From contig JAQVBZ010000007.1 of the NCBI GenBank assembly GCA_028690055.1, forward strand, positions 1-57,547: 57,547 bases of DNA, written 5' to 3'. Below are positions 3,530 to 53,187 of the stretch, piece after piece. Position 1 is the stretch's first letter, and each line of letters begins with the position of its first letter. Source of the DNA: Minisyncoccota bacterium (lineage in GTDB: Bacteria; Patescibacteriota; Minisyncoccia; JAHIHE01; JAGLIN01). The notes under the pieces are model-generated. The model made no database searches, had not been told where the DNA came from, and was given only the letters and a program-made list of their open reading frames with translations. The position numbers and the translations under genes were made by a program.

Positions 3530-3557
3530 GTCGGTAGAGTATGGAGAGTCTATAACA

Positions 3558-3666
3558 CGGAGTAGCAGGTTTCAACCTGCGCGGCTGTCCGATGCGAGAA
3601 TAAAGAAATGTATACGAAGCATTTTTCGGCTTGGGATAACCGCGCTGGATAAATCCCGCTACTCCG
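3558..3666. repeat. GTAG-tagged REP doublet (REPIN-like), copy 1, inverted relative to copies 2 and 3
   Basis: CGGAGTAGC...GCTACTCCG ends, internal hairpins GCAGGtttcaaCCTGC and GCtGGATaaATCCcGC; homologous to 33671..33788 and 37849..37961. Confidence 0.85.
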
Positions 3667-3754
3667 CGTAATATAATATTCATAATTCAAGATACGAAGA
3701 TTTCGGACATTCCACAGTAAGAGAAATATTCTCGATTAATATCCATTCAACCTT

Positions 3755-7805: not shown

Positions 7806-8150
7806 ATGAAACCACAAAAAAAAATATTGGGGTTATTCGTTACGGCATTGGCCTTGAGCGCTAACACCGCCCAAGCCACGGGTTGGCAAATGCCTACCAA
7901 CCCCGGAAGCCTACCGGAAGATTTTATGGGTTCTCTTGGCAACATAACTACTTGGCTATTGGAACTTGCCGCTGCGCTTGCCGTACTGGCTATCATTTAC
8001 GCAGGAGTCGTATATACTGCCTCCAGCGGAGACCAAGAACGCGTAGATAGTGCCAAGAAGTCGATAAAATATGCCATCATGGGACTCGCGATGGCCGGAA
8101 TCGCTTATGCCATAGTAAATGTCATTATTACCAAAATCCTAGTCGCCTAG
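7806..8150 (+). CDS. TrbC/VirB2-family pilin 2
   Basis: GVVYTASSGDQERVDSAKKSIKYAIMG; ATG 7806 lies just after the pilin 1 stop. Confidence 0.85.
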   Translation: MKPQKKILGLFVTALALSANTAQATGWQMPTNPGSLPEDFMGSLGNITTWLLELAAALAVLAIIYAGVVYTASSGDQERVDSAKKSIKYAIMGLAMAGIAYAIVNVIITKILVA

Positions 8151-8203
8151 GTCGGATATGGCACATTATGGAATATAGATTAATCAAAATAATCGATCTT
8201 ACG

Positions 8204-9956: not shown

Positions 9957-10041
9957 CATAATCCTGAGGCACCCCGAAAGATCCCAGTATCATATTCCTC
10001 GCGCCTTCTCACGGGATTCTTCGGGGTACCTCAGAATGACA
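9957..10041. repeat. TGTCAT-tagged palindromic repeat, copy a (left tag degenerate)
   Basis: cctgaggcaccccgaaagatccc...gggattcttcggggtacctcagaatgaca. Confidence 0.85.
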
Positions 10042-10093: not shown

Positions 10094-10999
10094 TCATTCC
10101 TTATTTGAATGAAACTTATTATGTATTTCTTTGAGATGTTTGTCGGTAACATGTGTATAAATCTGTGTAGTTGTTATACTGGAATGACCAAGCATCTCCT
10201 GCACACTGCGCAGATCCGCTCCGTTGCGCAATAAATCGGTAGCGAAGCTGTGCCGAAGAGTATGAGGAGTTATCTTTTTGACTATTCCCGCCGCCACAGC
10301 ATATTTTTTCACAATCCTTTCCATAGTCCGCGCTGAAAGCCGCGAAGGATCGCCAGTCTCCTTGAGGCTCACAAAAAGCGCCGGAGACAGGTCTTTGCGC
10401 CGCAACAAGTAATCATTCAGAGCAATCTTAGCCGAAGTAGAAAGAAATACCATGCGAAGCTTGTCGCCTTTGCCTCGCACCGAGAATTCACCAGTCTTGA
10501 GATTCACTTTATCGATATCCAGATTTACCAATTCAGAAACACGCAGCCCGGTAGAAAAGAGTATTTCCAATATCGCTGTATCACGCAAATTCTCCGACTT
10601 GCCACCGTGAGCCGCCTGCAGCAGACGCTCCACTTCATCTATTTCCAAGAATTCCACTTGTCTGTCTTTAACTTTCCCCAATTCAATCTTTTCGCTGCTC
10701 AAAGTCTCGATATCTCTCTTTGCCAGAAACTTCAGAAAGCCGCGGATGGCAATGATATAATAGTCCTGCGTGATTTTTTTCAGTTTGCGGCCATTTTCAT
10801 CCTCACGGCGATTAAGATACAGCCGAAAACTCCGCACACAGGCAGCCGTAATATCACCTGGCTTTTCCGCCTTCGACCAATCCAGAAATATCTCCAAATA
10901 GTGGTCATAATTCCTCACCGTCAGGGGAGAACGATTCCTTTCGATCTCCAGATATTCCAGATATTCTCTTTTGAGTTCTTGCAAGTCGACTTGAGGCAT
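10094..10999 (-). CDS. XerC/XerD-family tyrosine recombinase
   Basis: ILFSTGLRVSEL, HTLRHSFATDLL, LGHSSITTTQIYTH (R-K-H-R-H-Y set), N-terminal SAM-like domain. Confidence 0.92.
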   Translation of the reverse strand: MPQVDLQELKREYLEYLEIERNRSPLTVRNYDHYLEIFLDWSKAEKPGDITAACVRSFRLYLNRREDENGRKLKKITQDYYIIAIRGFLKFLAKRDIETLSSEKIELGKVKDRQVEFLEIDEVERLLQAAHGGKSENLRDTAILEILFSTGLRVSELVNLDIDKVNLKTGEFSVRGKGDKLRMVFLSTSAKIALNDYLLRRKDLSPALFVSLKETGDPSRLSARTMERIVKKYAVAAGIVKKITPHTLRHSFATDLLRNGADLRSVQEMLGHSSITTTQIYTHVTDKHLKEIHNKFHSNKE

Positions 11000-11054
11000 A
11001 TTTCCGGCAAAATTTATCCTATTTACTTCTATATTTTACGACATATCTAAGAAC

Positions 11055-11083
11055 TTGTCTATTAAAAATTTATATGATAGACT
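11055..11083 (+). promoter_or_regulatory. Candidate sigma70 promoter for rpsO-NYN-pnp
   Basis: TTGTCT-N17-TAGACT with TG extension. Confidence 0.5.
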
Positions 11084-11173
11084 GATAAAAGAGATATATT
11101 GTCTCGATTTAAGCTATGGAAAATTTTATAACCAGAAGCAAATCATCAATCCTAATAAGCATTAAAGAAGAAA

Positions 11174-18572: not shown

Positions 18573-18679
18573 TGTCATTCCGGACTTGATCCGGAATCTT
18601 CGTTATATATCGTTAATGTTGTAAGATATACCGTTTATATCTAATATAACGAAGGTCCTGAAACAAGTTCAGGATGACA
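18573..18679. repeat. TGTCAT-tagged palindromic repeat, copy b
   Basis: tgtcattccggacttgatccggaatcttcgttatat...atataacgaaggtcctgaaacaagttcaggatgaca. Confidence 0.9.
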
Positions 18680-24863: not shown

Positions 24864-25544
24864 TTATGAAGCGAGGTCAAGGTCTGCGATGTCCGGCAAT
24901 CCTTTTTTCTCAACCGATTCCGGATTATACAAGTTATAATATAGCTCGATAAGTTCCTGAGTATTAAGCATCGTCATTCTCAGTCCCGCCCCGCTCAAGT
25001 TCTCCACAACGTGATCGACTCTCTGGAAAAGCTGGTCGCGATATTTCTCAAAGTTCCTGCGGTTCGCCATAATCTGCGGGGCATTGGCAACAGAAGCAAT
25101 CTTCGCCTTGACGTTGCCATCCTTGGACTCCGACAAAGAGAAGGGAACAACGATGTAGAAAGTCTTAGCCACGATGTTGGCCATTTTCACCAACCCATTG
25201 ATATATTCGACATAGCTCGTAATCTGCATACGAAGCAAGTCGTTAGTTTGCTTCTTTTCCTCTTCGCGCAAGACATCAAGATAAGTATCGATATTGAGAC
25301 GCCTGGAATTAATAACAATCTGTACCGAAAAATCCAAGGAGTTCAAAAAACTCTGATAGCGATAGATAATACCATCCTGCTCATCGATTGATTTGAGCGA
25401 GAAATTTATAGAAGAAACCATCAGCACTCCTCGCAAACTGCCGTTTTTCAAAACGACTACATTATCTTTTATTTCACTGATTTCAAGATATTTTTGTGAG
25501 CTTAGCCCTTTTTGGTCTTGCTTCTCTGGAGTAGACATTGCCAT
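24864..25544 (-). CDS. TraC-like/VirB4-associated protein of the CPR T4SS-like locus
   Basis: EIKDNVVVLKNG, SSINFSLKS.DEQ, FLNSLDF..QI, FYIVVPF; lies between PrgI and VirB4. Confidence 0.75.
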   Translation of the reverse strand: MAMSTPEKQDQKGLSSQKYLEISEIKDNVVVLKNGSLRGVLMVSSINFSLKSIDEQDGIIYRYQSFLNSLDFSVQIVINSRRLNIDTYLDVLREEEKKQTNDLLRMQITSYVEYINGLVKMANIVAKTFYIVVPFSLSESKDGNVKAKIASVANAPQIMANRRNFEKYRDQLFQRVDHVVENLSGAGLRMTMLNTQELIELYYNLYNPESVEKKGLPDIADLDLAS

Positions 25545-25704
25545 AGTAAAAGCTGTTAGAATTTAAGAAAAATCTAAAGTTGAAGTTTTATTTTCCTTCA
25601 AAACTGCAACTTTCTTTCTTCCTTCTGTTCTACTTTTAATATATGCAGGATATCATCTCCCGATCAGAGACTGTCTTCGATCTGATCAAGGATCAAGGGC
25701 AGGC

Positions 25705-25775
25705 TCTGAGGTAACCCGAAGGATCTCGTTATGTCCCGCGTAGTATCGGGATTCTTCGGATTACCTCAGAAGACA
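25705..25775. repeat. TGTCAT-family palindrome, copy c (left arm interrupted)
   Basis: ctgaggtaacccgaaggatctcg...cgggattcttcggattacctcagaagaca; TGTC displaced to about 25672 by a ~30-bp insert. Confidence 0.8.
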
Positions 25776-25780
25776 CAATT

Positions 25781-26233
25781 CTAGTTTCTGAAAATGTTCT
25801 GATCCGGCCTCGTCTGCGCCTCGTAAGGCAAATTAACAGCGGCGCTGGTATCCAAAAGATTGGCTAAATCGCGTATTCTACTGTGTGGAACTTGTTTTAT
25901 AGGTTCTACCGTAGAGACATGCCTTTTTTGCACCGTCTTGTACATCGTTATCTCCGGTTCTCTTCTCCAGAGGTAGAGATGGTTGGTTGTGAAATATTCC
26001 AAAACATTTGCCAAGTAACGGGCGAGCGAAATCCCTTTTGGTCTGTAGAAAGCGAATGCCAGCGTCAGGGGAGCAATGATGATAAAAATGAGCAAGAAAA
26101 ACATAAAGCTGAAAAAAGTAAAGGCCATAAGTAAAACTCCTCCCCCCATAATCAGATAGATAGTCTGCTTGCCGGTTAGAGGCCCTACGATCTTATCTTC
26201 TACATCAATAAACTGTGGAACACTAAATTGCAT
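25781..26233 (-). CDS. PrgI-family protein (VirB3-like)
   Basis: MQFSVPQFIDVEDKIVGPLT, two TM, AFYRPKG..L, YLWRR. Confidence 0.88.
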   Translation of the reverse strand: MQFSVPQFIDVEDKIVGPLTGKQTIYLIMGGGVLLMAFTFFSFMFFLLIFIIIAPLTLAFAFYRPKGISLARYLANVLEYFTTNHLYLWRREPEITMYKTVQKRHVSTVEPIKQVPHSRIRDLANLLDTSAAVNLPYEAQTRPDQNIFRN

Positions 26234-26289
26234 ATGATTGAAATTATATTTTTATTTTTTCGTTATTTAGGAAGGTCGGTACGATAAAG

Positions 26290-26756
26290 TGTCATCCCTA
26301 GACAGAGGCTACCGTACTTTACTTGTCATTGCTCCAATAGGTCTCTAAATTCAGGATTCAAAGTTTTTATAAGATCGACTTTCTTGCTCCTTACCCATCC
26401 TTTGATTTCCTTTTCCGCCATTATCGCCGATTCAGGAGAATCGAACTCTTGGCAATACACTAATTTTTCAACATTATATCTTTTTGTAAAACTCTTCTCG
26501 CTCGATTTACTTTGATGCTCAAACATTCTCCTGTAAACATCATTAATGATTCCCGTATAAAAAACAATGTTTCTCTTATTTGTTGCAATATAAACATAAT
26601 ATTTTTTATTGCGCATTGCTTTTTATTACTTGTCACCCCTAAGCTGTCATCCTGAGGCAGAGGTTACTATATCTTACCTGTCATCCTGAGGTACTCCGAA
26701 GGATCCCGTTATATCCCGCGCAGTCTCGGGATTCTTCGGGTTACCTCAGAATGACA
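26290..26756. mobile_element. GIY-YIG nuclease cassette bracketed by 40-bp direct repeats and a full TGTCAT palindrome (copy d)
   Basis: 26290..26329 vs 26645..26684 share 31/40 nt, each TGTCAT...TGTCAT; full palindrome 26679..26756; inserted inside the T4SS-like operon. Confidence 0.65.
26326..26616 (-). CDS. Small stand-alone GIY-YIG nuclease
   Basis: YYVYI...YTG, RR..EH, FTKRYNV.KLVY, EK.IKGW.R.KK..LI...NP; stop TGA lies inside an AATGACA tag. Confidence 0.93.
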   Translation of the reverse strand: MRNKKYYVYIATNKRNIVFYTGIINDVYRRMFEHQSKSSEKSFTKRYNVEKLVYCQEFDSPESAIMAEKEIKGWVRSKKVDLIKTLNPEFRDLLEQ

Positions 26757-26850
26757 CGATTTTTCTATCTCTTTAATATTCCTATGGAGCTATACCTTTG
26801 CGCGCCGCACAACTGTATAGCATCTATAATAATATTATATTTCTTTAGGA

Positions 26851-27639
26851 TTACTCGTCCTGTATCAAAGAAAAGTCTATTTTCTTCAACTTGGGAGAGT
26901 AGGGGAGATCAATATCTCCATCAAACGACTTCACAATGAGATTGAGCTGCCTGCGCTCTTCATCATTCATACTTCGAGTGTTCTTGTCGTGGCAGACGTA
27001 CTGAACCCTATCCAGATTGGAATGATCATTATATATTCCGACTTTATCTTTATAGTCTTGGATCCAATATTTTATCATAGGCTTCATACCCGACATACCT
27101 TTGAGATCGATAGAATTCTGTGCTCCGATGACTTCGTCTCCCAATTCAGGATGTTGCCTGATTAAATCTTCAATCTTGCCATAAACGATTTTATCTTTCG
27201 TTTTTTCCACTATCTCCGCGCGTTCCTTATCCAGCATATCCTCAATCGCTTCCTCTCTGTTTGCAAACTGCTGAGCAACCTTTTCCACCTTTATCTCCTT
27301 CGGAATCTCTCCTCCCAGTTTCAAGATTTCATCCTCGACTCCCGGGTAAAAATCCTTAACCGGATAAAGCATCTTACAGAGAATGACAAGGGCCACCTCC
27401 GCAGCAGTTTTCTCATCGAATTGAAATGCCTCTTTCAATATCAACGACAACTGCTCAACCTTGGCATCTTTGAGAAAAGTCAGTCCGACAACGTCTTTGA
27501 ACTTTTCAAGCTTTTCCTTGTCATCATTCAGATATTGTTTCCAAACCAACAAGATAGCATCCGAAGACTGGTCACTTAAGGAGTTATCCCTTATATTATC
27601 GGGTAGCTGGTTTAATCTGGCTATTATTTCTTTGTTCAT
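26851..27639 (-). CDS. Hypothetical protein (262 aa) in the T4SS-like operon
   Basis: Long ORF 6 nt downstream of the VirB6-like stop; helical composition. Confidence 0.75.
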   Translation of the reverse strand: MNKEIIARLNQLPDNIRDNSLSDQSSDAILLVWKQYLNDDKEKLEKFKDVVGLTFLKDAKVEQLSLILKEAFQFDEKTAAEVALVILCKMLYPVKDFYPGVEDEILKLGGEIPKEIKVEKVAQQFANREEAIEDMLDKERAEIVEKTKDKIVYGKIEDLIRQHPELGDEVIGAQNSIDLKGMSGMKPMIKYWIQDYKDKVGIYNDHSNLDRVQYVCHDKNTRSMNDEERRQLNLIVKSFDGDIDLPYSPKLKKIDFSLIQDE

Positions 27640-33670: not shown

Positions 33671-33788
33671 CTAAATGGAGTAGCGGGATTCATCCCGCGC
33701 TGCTATCCTATGCCTTTAAAACCCCCGCAATCGCACTTTTTATCCGCTTCGGACAACCGCGCAGGTTGAAACCTGCTACTCCATTTAG
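33671..33788. repeat. GTAG-tagged REP doublet, copy 2
   Basis: 14-bp perfect terminal inverted repeat CTAAATGGAGTAGC/GCTACTCCATTTAG. Confidence 0.9.
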
Positions 33789-38151: not shown

Positions 38152-38238
38152 AATACGTGTATAATACGTGTATACATTATACATGTATTGCCTTTCTATA
38201 TAATACATGTATAATACGTGTATACATTATACATGTAT
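38152..38238. repeat. Two 37-bp direct repeats (period 50), each a 13-10-13 inverted repeat, upstream of the Fic gene
   Basis: ATACATGTATAAT-N10-ATTATACATGTAT; units 38152..38188 and 38202..38238 are 36/37 identical. Confidence 0.9.
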
Positions 38239-40597: not shown

Positions 40598-40767
40598 GTC
40601 TAAGAGCTTACTCAAGACCTTTCTTTCGTTGCGAAAACTTCAAATTTTGTGCGAAAAACCTGAAAGTTGAGAAAGGCTATAATAATAACCTGACGAGACT
40701 TGAAGATTTTGCAGCCAAAATTTGGAGTTTGCAGCAGAAAACGAAGGTCTTGAGTAAGCTCTGAGAC
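40598..40767 (+). ncRNA. Candidate ~170-nt rod-shaped RNA or leader (or MITE) upstream of rplS
   Basis: 19-bp perfect inverted repeat 40603..40621 / 40744..40762 plus internal stems with G-U pairs. Confidence 0.45.
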
Positions 40768-41627: not shown

Positions 41628-41701
41628 GGGCGCTTAGCTCAGTTGGCTAGAGCATCTCGTTTACACCGAGAGGGTCGGGGGTCCGAATCCCTCAGCGCCC
41701 A
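41628..41701 (+). tRNA. tRNA-Val(TAC), with atypical T-loop TCCGAAT
   Basis: GGGCGCT/AGCGCCC acceptor, TCTCG-TTTACAC-CGAGA anticodon arm. Confidence 0.92.
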
Positions 41702-41817: not shown

Positions 41818-41955
41818 TGTCATTTCGAACGCAGCGATAGCGAAGTGAGAAATCTGGGAAAGATGCTATGCTGGATAATTAGCTTTGTTAAAAAACATTA
41901 TCAATAGCATCGTACCTTTCTCAGATCTCTCAGTCGTGCCTCCTTCGAGATGACA
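41818..41955. repeat. TGTCAT-tagged palindrome, copy e
   Basis: tgtcatttcgaacgcagcgatagcgaagtgagaaatct...agatctctcagtcgtgcctccttcgagatgaca. Confidence 0.88.
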
Positions 41956-41973
41956 TATGTTACAATCATTTTT

Positions 41974-42046
41974 GCCGGGGTAGCTCAGTTGGTAGAGCAA
42001 AGGATTGAAAATCCTTGTGTCGGCGGTTCGAGCCCGCCTCCTGGCA
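41974..42046 (+). tRNA. tRNA-Phe(GAA)
   Basis: AAGGA-TTGAAAA-TCCTT anticodon arm, GTTCGAGC T-loop. Confidence 0.96.
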
Positions 42047-46199: not shown

Positions 46200-46326
46200 T
46201 GTCATTCTGAACGGAGCGCAGCGCAGTGAAGAATCCCATTGCTATGCGGGTAAATCATTATATATATCGTATCATTTTTTGTTATCTGCATAGTATCGGG
46301 ATACTTCGGAGTACCTCAGCATGACA
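46200..46326. repeat. TGTCAT-tagged palindrome, copy f
   Basis: tgtcattctgaacggagcgcagcgcagtgaagaatccc...gggatacttcggagtacctcagcatgaca. Confidence 0.9.
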
Positions 46327-49938: not shown

Positions 49939-50040
49939 CGTCATTCTGAGGTACTCCGAAGAATCCCGTTATATCCTACGTACTGACAGGGATGCCCCGC
50001 CTCCGCGAGGGTGAATCTGGAAGACCTCCTCGCAATGACG
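49939..50040. repeat. CGTCAT-tagged palindrome, copy g (hybrid arms)
   Basis: cgtcattctgaggtactccgaagaatccc...ctcctcgcaatgacg. Confidence 0.85.
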
Positions 50041-53100: not shown

Positions 53101-53187
53101 TGTCATCATATATGTAGTGAAACGAAGTGAAGAATCTCACTACTGCGCGGGAGAGAACGGGATTCTTCGGGGTACCTCAGAATGACA
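53101..53187. repeat. TGTCAT-tagged palindrome, copy h
   Basis: tgtcatc...aacgaagtgaagaatctc...gggattcttcggggtacctcagaatgaca. Confidence 0.88.

Follow-up and report, generated by a model that had tools for sequence, protein, structure and literature searches.

The window analysed here, a 57,547-nucleotide stretch of DNA from a Minisyncoccota bacterium, carries a small GIY-YIG gene that very probably encodes an Ssn-family nuclease, and the TGTCAT palindromes of the same stretch would be inverted pairs of its cognate hairpin, with gene and repeats as resident and selected partners. This pairing of enzyme and repeats is well supported by sequence comparison. The sequence-only reading that preceded this analysis had proposed the GIY-YIG subfamily as partner and mobiliser of REP-type palindromes. 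The partner half of the proposal stood (similarity to SsnA at E=2e-20 and a 30-fold enrichment of repeats around homologous genes), while the mobiliser role is doubtful: the gene is long resident, syntenic in relatives and under purifying selection, and the enzyme is of a hydrolytic type. Chenal et al. (2025, Nat Commun, PMC11893778) had already reported the association, likened the NTS-ssnA-NTS layout to an insertion sequence, drawn the analogy with RAYT/REP and raised a mobiliser role, so the earlier proposal rediscovers a published result. New here are a repeat grammar missed by the published pattern, the covariation within it, the co-segregation of protein clades and stem types, and a dated series of presence and absence of the gene at one locus.

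A probable Ssn-family nuclease gene in the window

The gene (26326..26616, minus strand) is a 96-aa ORF for a single-domain endonuclease. Pfam GIY-YIG (PF01541) matched it with E=8.2e-15, covering residues 5-79. SsnA, the founding Ssn member, cuts single-stranded DNA just 5' of CGTCAT-tagged hairpins (Chenal et al. 2025, PMC11893778), and those authors accepted as Ssn proteins the BLASTP matches to Neisseria SsnA that had E<1e-10 and covered at least 75% of the query. We used the N. gonorrhoeae orthologue in place of N. meningitidis SsnA CAX49033.1, and the window protein was 40% identical to it over 86/96 residues (E=2e-20, 64.7 bits), values that lie within the published limits. The gonococcal protein was the single match in NZ_CP119140.1 (L086, PLSDB), a 94-aa ORF among nine canonical NTS repeats, and was taken as the SsnA orthologue because of its length and the nine repeats around it. 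This PLSDB plasmid record is a mislabelled 2.17-Mb N. gonorrhoeae chromosome.

The only PDB sequence relatives of the window protein were two UPF0213 structural-genomics proteins (27.9 and 24.6 bits); by these scores, the similarity to SsnA is much stronger than that to UPF0213. The AlphaFold model (pLDDT 90) had the GIY-YIG fold beta-beta-alpha-alpha-beta-alpha-alpha with no added domain, and a fold search with this model matched UPF0213, Slx1 and UvrC N-domains. Neither the sequence search nor the fold search of the PDB returned a solved Ssn structure, and NCBIfam, PHROGs and PADLOC gave no family for the protein. The catalytic-core residues Y7/Y9, Y20, R30 and E68 are present, and are invariant or nearly so in alignment A1. 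Codon 24 (26545-26547) encodes Ile in the window protein, where no fewer than 90% of the 57 relatives have Thr, the 90%-identical protein of L087 among them; in the relatives this Thr is part of a GVT motif after the second Tyr. The window ORF very probably encodes a member of the Ssn family of single-domain GIY-YIG endonucleases, predicted to be of cd10448 type.

Repeats adjacent to the gene

A complete palindrome (26679..26756) composed of two inverted hairpin half-sites lies upstream of the gene. The plus-strand half-site (26679-26707) reads TGTCAT-CCT-GAGGTACTCCGA-AGG-AT-CCC and the minus-strand half-site (26728-26756) TGTCAT-TCT-GAGGTAACCCGA-AGA-AT-CCC. The arms of the palindrome are 30 nt long, 87% complementary and separated by an 18-nt spacer. 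As single-stranded DNA it folds with -22.1 / -22.9 kcal/mol (z = -7.3 / -6.8), energies equalled by 0/200 shuffles.

The sequence-only reading had described the gene as lying between two 40-bp direct repeats bounded by TGTCAT, and these are indeed there (26290..26329 downstream and 26645..26684 upstream, 31/40 identical, TGTCAT at both ends of each). In the repeat search they extended to 45 nt at 76% (26285-26329 / 26640-26684). The stop codon of the gene was correctly placed within a tag (TGA on the minus strand, 26326-26328, inside ATGACA, the reverse complement of the tag), as was the overlap between palindrome and upstream repeat, which have the first TGTCAT of the palindrome in common. 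The view that the 40-bp repeats are the ends of a cassette was rejected, because they do not fold as single-stranded DNA (z about +1) and are absent or replaced by full palindromes in relatives, where the gene lies between complete palindromes. The upstream repeat is a degenerate right-end fragment between two tags, with no hairpin (fold z=+1.1), and is mostly an insertion with respect to L087 and L088 (alignment A3, columns 260-300). The downstream repeat is also a degenerate fragment, and its place holds a full palindrome and an extra half-site in both of these relatives. This comparison indicates that the 'direct repeats' are a lineage-specific upstream insertion and a related downstream fragment, and that the downstream palindrome of the window was lost. 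A third tag fragment (TGTCACCCCTAAGC) lies at 26631..26644 on the plus strand. The window gene is flanked by two competent half-sites upstream and by a degenerate fragment only downstream, where no fold-competent half-site lies within 500 bp.

Repeats around homologous genes

We analysed 80 loci from species-representative genomes encoding the closest relatives of the window protein (47-62% identical). Their hosts belong to CPR groups, Bacteroidota, Chloroflexota, Cyanobacteria, Planctomycetota, Proteobacteria and Clostridia. Half-sites were searched as YGTCAY with the 5-mer that begins at the A of the tag recurring further on as its reverse complement. Half-site density was 6.61/kb up to 200 bp from the gene and 0.221/kb more than 1 kb away (30-fold). 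Near-gene hits numbered 208 with the real tag and 1, 2, 5 and 23 with four control tags, the control that gave 23 (RGTCAY) sharing GTCAY with the real tag and differing from it at the first base only. In viral contigs, density was 2.81 vs. 0.146/kb (19-fold) around close relatives, and there were almost no half-sites around distant GIY-YIG proteins. The enrichment in homologue flanks that the sequence-only reading had suggested looking for was thereby observed in both collections. At least one half-site was present in 71/80 loci, and half-sites were present on both sides of the gene in 56/80.

The half-sites follow the grammar YGTC / AT-NNN / GAG ... A / N'N'N'-AT / CYC, in which a 5-bp outer stem beginning with AT is followed by a small internal loop rich in G and A and then by an inner stem-loop that varies. 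The 5-mer at offset +4 was reverse-complemented within 45 nt in 66% of the near-gene tags, compared to 5-12% at other offsets; at offset +6 the value was 7% only, indicating that the stem ends after 5 bp. Loops measured 12-45 nt. Eleven stem sequences occurred around homologues, all with compensatory changes. The GAG after the stem and the C(T/C)C after the 3' arm were conserved (information content about 1.0) though not imposed by the search. The boundaries of the unit were sharp, with information content about 0 immediately outside, and the ATNCT-stem class was 1 nt shorter on the 3' side. Left and right half-sites of a locus had the grammar in common, but not the inner loop. In the loci with half-sites on both sides, the inverted arrangement with tags outward was the commonest (28 loci; 11, 11 and 6 for the other three), and the inner end of the right half-site often overlapped the stop codon, or the ORF read into the half-site.

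The window half-site TGTCAT-CCT-GAGG-TACT-CCGA-AGG-AT-CCC fits this grammar, and the long palindromes of the window are best described as half-sites paired in inverted orientation. In isolation, the half-site folds as a covariation-supported 5-bp stem, a 2x2 internal loop and a 2-bp stem; this fold is weak (-3.2 kcal/mol) and not better than shuffles. Single-stranded DNA could also fold as the full palindrome, which would compete with the half-site and bury the tags in a stem. The published SRM pattern matches the gonococcal NTS copies. It was found near the gene in 0/80 loci and matched none of the window's palindromes, giving one chance hit inside an ORF elsewhere than in these repeats. As this pattern misses the repeats described here, cognate recognition in the window is an extrapolation to a variant hairpin.

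In a neighbour-joining analysis of the 80 proteins with the gonococcal protein as root, the tree split into two clades by stem type. Flanking stems are ATTCT, ATCCT, ATGCT or ATCCC in one clade, and ATTGC and its close variants in the other. The split is independent of host phylum and has one exception; 0/2000 label permutations reached the observed separation. The window protein belongs to the ATNCT-stem clade, matching its own repeats. Some genomes have pairs of Ssn paralogues (L034:5407-5640 and 7881-8159; L019:10001-10270 and 10826-11098). The L034 pair comprises one window-type and one Neisseria-type protein (51% identical), while the L019 pair consists of 78%-identical copies flanking a response-regulator gene, each with its own half-sites. 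Several database homologues (P0013, P0017, P0035, P0043, P0045, P0047 and P0057) have C-terminal tails such as DSSLRSE, DPSLCSG and RAAQNDGKG in alignment A1. Such tails arise where the ORF reads into the flanking repeat, and the called ends of these proteins are probably annotation read-through.

Enzyme-free copies in the window

The sequence-only reading had counted seven enzyme-free copies of the palindrome family across the window, and we obtained the same number, all of them intergenic. Family palindromes lie at 46200-46326 and 53101-53187, at 9957-10041 with the left tag mutated, and at 25705-25775, between prgI and the TraC-like gene, with both tags decayed. The palindrome at 49939-50040 joins a TCT-type left half to a TGC-type right half. 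Two further copies are variants: one at 41818-41955, with stems ATTTC and ATCTC, between the tRNA genes 41628-41701 and 41974-42046, and one at 18573-18679, in which the half-sites have a continuous stem (TGTC-ATTCCGGA...TCCGGAAT) nearer to the Neisseria type. Nine half-sites in the window fit the grammar, compared to 0.01 ± 0.10 expected from 100 dinucleotide shuffles. The palindrome between prgI and traC is clade-limited: L088 shares it, in the same position, and no such element occurs there in L092, L094 and L098.

Rfam at gathering thresholds matched nine tRNAs only in the window, which places the palindromes outside known RNA families. A promoter and terminator scan of 25500-27000 gave nothing beyond shuffles, and no terminator-like T-runs. 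Other repeats were also present in the window. A second, unrelated palindrome family without a YGTC tag occurs at 3540-3684 and 33671-33788 (51-56-nt arms, GGAGTAGCGGGATTCATCCCGCGC...), an intergenic inverted repeat at 40598-40767 has 83-nt arms (72% complementary, 4-nt spacer), and two copies of the AT-rich repeat ATACGTGTATAATACGTGTATACATTATACATGTAT lie at 38153-38238, directly downstream of a tRNA gene.

The palindromes could in principle be transcript-level hairpins (terminators or mRNA stabilisers) that coincide with an unrelated UPF0213/Slx1-like housekeeping nuclease. Their intergenic positions, the strong RNA hairpins that they would make, and UPF0213 and Slx1 as the nearest solved structures are what such a coincidence would predict. 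It is nevertheless highly improbable given the 30-fold enrichment around homologues across phyla, the protein clades that track stem type, the much closer similarity to SsnA than to UPF0213, and palindromes lacking both terminator-like T-runs and Rfam matches.

The locus in related genomes

The ssn gene is flanked by genes of a DNA-transfer-type apparatus and shares their strand. The operon had been labelled VirB6-PrgI-VirB4. PrgI (E=3e-10), a TraC-like gene and a VirB4/TraG-type ATPase were recovered, while the 'VirB6' label is weak, given a TrbL match (E=0.0015) below the Pfam cut-off. In three relatives (L087, 90% aa identity; L088 and L089, 73%) ssn is at the same site, the spacer between the 262-aa gene and prgI, and has full palindromes on both sides. 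Against these syntenic orthologues dN/dS of ssn was 0.03-0.08, like that of prgI, at a saturated dS of about 1.8. The arms of palindrome 26679-26756 were conserved at 28-30/30 positions in L087 and L088. Purifying selection on the gene and the maintenance of the arms despite saturated dS indicate that gene and half-sites are both constrained.

The sequence-only reading had also asked for an empty site between prgI and the 262-aa gene, and ssn is missing from this place in nine other relatives that share its flanking genes. The spacer of L092 is clean (121 bp), and those of L090, L091 and L097 contain palindromes only. In L093 (1991-2353) the same spacer harbours a 120-aa 23S_rRNA_IVP (four-helix-bundle) ORF (Pfam E=3.7e-17) with its own inverted repeats. 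Because relatives carry other small elements in this spacer, the site looks like a tolerated insertion hot spot, apparently one for small selfish ORFs. In the PrgI+TraC tree, L097 falls within the ssn-bearing group, indicating at least one loss or replacement of ssn. No strain-level indels were seen in five contigs from other samples (L001-L005), which were gap-free and, at 99.9-100% identity to the window, uninformative on this point. A hairpin (GCTATACCTTTGCGCG / CGCACAACTGTATAGC) in an AT-rich block at 26789-26821 is conserved in the spacer between the 262-aa gene and prgI. It is also found in L087, L088, L090, L091 and L097, even where palindromes or ssn differ, and may serve in the regulation or processing of the operon.

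The presence or absence of the gene at one site among relatives is a point in favour of an autonomous minimal mobile element of about 0.4 kb (half-site, ORF, inverted half-site) that moves or copies itself. The gene-free palindromes would be its MITE-like derivatives, and the homing-like repair of a cleaved empty palindrome from a gene-bearing copy would be one possible route. Tag-outward inverted half-sites set tightly around the ORF as the commonest layout, the frequent overlap of the stop codon with the inner end of the right half-site, the paralogues in some genomes, and the distribution of 50-60%-identical proteins across CPR, Bacteroidota, Chloroflexota, Cyanobacteria, Planctomycetota and Clostridia all fit such an element. 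On the other hand, half-site orientation varies, the left and right half-sites differ in their inner loops despite their common grammar, and no target-site duplication or conserved target was seen (information content about 0 outside the unit). Moreover, the gene keeps its position in three lineages, between which dS is saturated, it is under purifying selection, and no indel separates strain-level contigs. Finally, GIY-YIG enzymes hydrolyse DNA and, to our knowledge, do not join it. We consider this explanation possible but doubtful. In its strongest form, the unit of half-site, ssn and inverted half-site would be the smallest known autonomous selfish DNA element, which we regard as rather unlikely. 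A hydrolytic single-strand nuclease would then drive the unit in place of a transposase, it would spread through nicking directed by the hairpin and subsequent host repair or template copying, the palindromes would be non-autonomous derivatives, and co-evolution of enzyme and stem would reset specificity, giving the two clades.

The neighbouring genes bring in another possibility, namely that, as proposed for Neisseria, the enzyme serves the host by cutting repeat-bearing single-stranded DNA that is taken up or transferred, thereby controlling it, and that its place in the operon is functional. In N. meningitidis, SsnA reduces transformation by NTS-flanked DNA (PMC11893778). The purifying selection on ssn and its position on the same strand, between genes of the transfer-type apparatus, agree with such a role. 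It is distinctly unlikely in view of the nine relatives that have the same operon and no gene at the site, the other small elements held by the spacer (including the L093 23S_rRNA_IVP ORF), and the homologues at the 80 loci, which are found by repeats and not by a shared neighbouring gene. With the gene missing at this site in relatives and other small elements gathered in the same spacer, the in-operon position looks incidental.

Proposed action of the enzyme and comparison with known systems

The resident partnership of an Ssn nuclease and its cognate hairpins, which we favour, would work as follows. When DNA becomes single-stranded during replication, uptake or transfer, a half-site would fold; the Ssn enzyme would bind the folded half-site and cut the same strand a few nt 5' of the tag. 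SsnA and three homologues bind and cut single-stranded DNA only, strand-specifically, beside a CGTCAT-tagged hairpin (PMC11893778), and we infer by analogy with these experiments that the window protein would likewise bind only single-stranded DNA and cleave 5' of the tag. Ssn activity on the window repeats would presumably maintain or spread them and keep them in sequence. Gene and repeats would form a persistent system of one enzyme and a repeat population, in which the gene is long-resident, selected and mostly vertically inherited. Points against this reading are the repeats' mismatch to the published SRM pattern, the weak fold of an isolated half-site, the Ile at position 24 of the window protein and the lack of a fold-competent half-site downstream of the window gene.

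These results place a large clade of genes annotated as 'GIY-YIG nuclease family', from uncultured reduced-genome bacteria and many phyla, in the experimentally characterised Ssn family. The grammar (tag, 5-bp covarying stem, G/A internal loop and free inner hairpin) would let annotators find the repeats, and the read-in of repeats explains a common annotation artefact, the odd C-terminal tails such as DSSLRSE. The split of the tree by stem triplet points to matched specificities of enzyme and hairpin, which might serve as orthogonal single-strand cutters.

The catalytic fold of the window protein is that of I-TevI-type homing endonucleases and of UPF0213/Slx1-like nucleases. Homing GIY-YIG enzymes have a separate DNA-binding domain and cut double-stranded DNA, whereas the window protein is single-domain, has no PHROG match and is found in a cellular context. 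Hairpin ends in single-stranded DNA and short gene-free derivatives are reminiscent of IS200/IS605 elements and IS/MITE pairs. Unlike them, the window system has no transposase fold, no target duplication or target motif was seen, and the orientation and inner loops of its ends vary. The likeness to RAYT/REPIN consists in a long-resident gene flanked by a repeat recognised as a single-stranded DNA hairpin and in many enzyme-free repeat pairs. The enzyme is GIY-YIG and not HUH, and the tag YGTC and not GTAG, so that this resemblance is functional only. RAYTs act through an HUH tyrosine, form a covalent intermediate and can rejoin DNA, whereas GIY-YIG enzymes are hydrolytic.

REPs with CGTC or TGTC tags and AT-initiated stems were catalogued by Di Nocera et al. 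(2013, PMC3733652), who found no dedicated transposase, as the sequence-only reading had correctly stated; the partner enzyme was not then known. The window repeats share with them a YGTC tag at one end, AT at stem positions 1-2 and dispersed intergenic copies. The catalogued REPs have 8-9 bp stems and 4-5 nt loops, whereas the window stems are of 5 bp with longer loops; the variant at 18573-18679 comes closest to the continuous CGTC-REP stem.

The closest system is that of SsnA and the NTS/SRM repeats, which lie in the flanks of 71% of homologues (PMC11893778). The Neisseria hairpin has a continuous 8-bp stem and a 3-5 nt loop, whereas the window hairpin is interrupted, a GAG/GA(A) internal loop separating its 5-bp stem from an inner hairpin that varies, and the half-sites here are mostly paired into long palindromes. 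The preferred layout in the 80 loci has the tags outward, while the gonococcal tags face the gene, and the host here, unlike Neisseria, looks like an uncultured bacterium with a reduced genome. In both systems a single-domain GIY-YIG protein of about 95 aa (Ssn members have about 90-150 aa) is accompanied by repeats that start with YGTCAT, have a stem starting with AT and a C after it, flank the gene and are dispersed in intergenic DNA.
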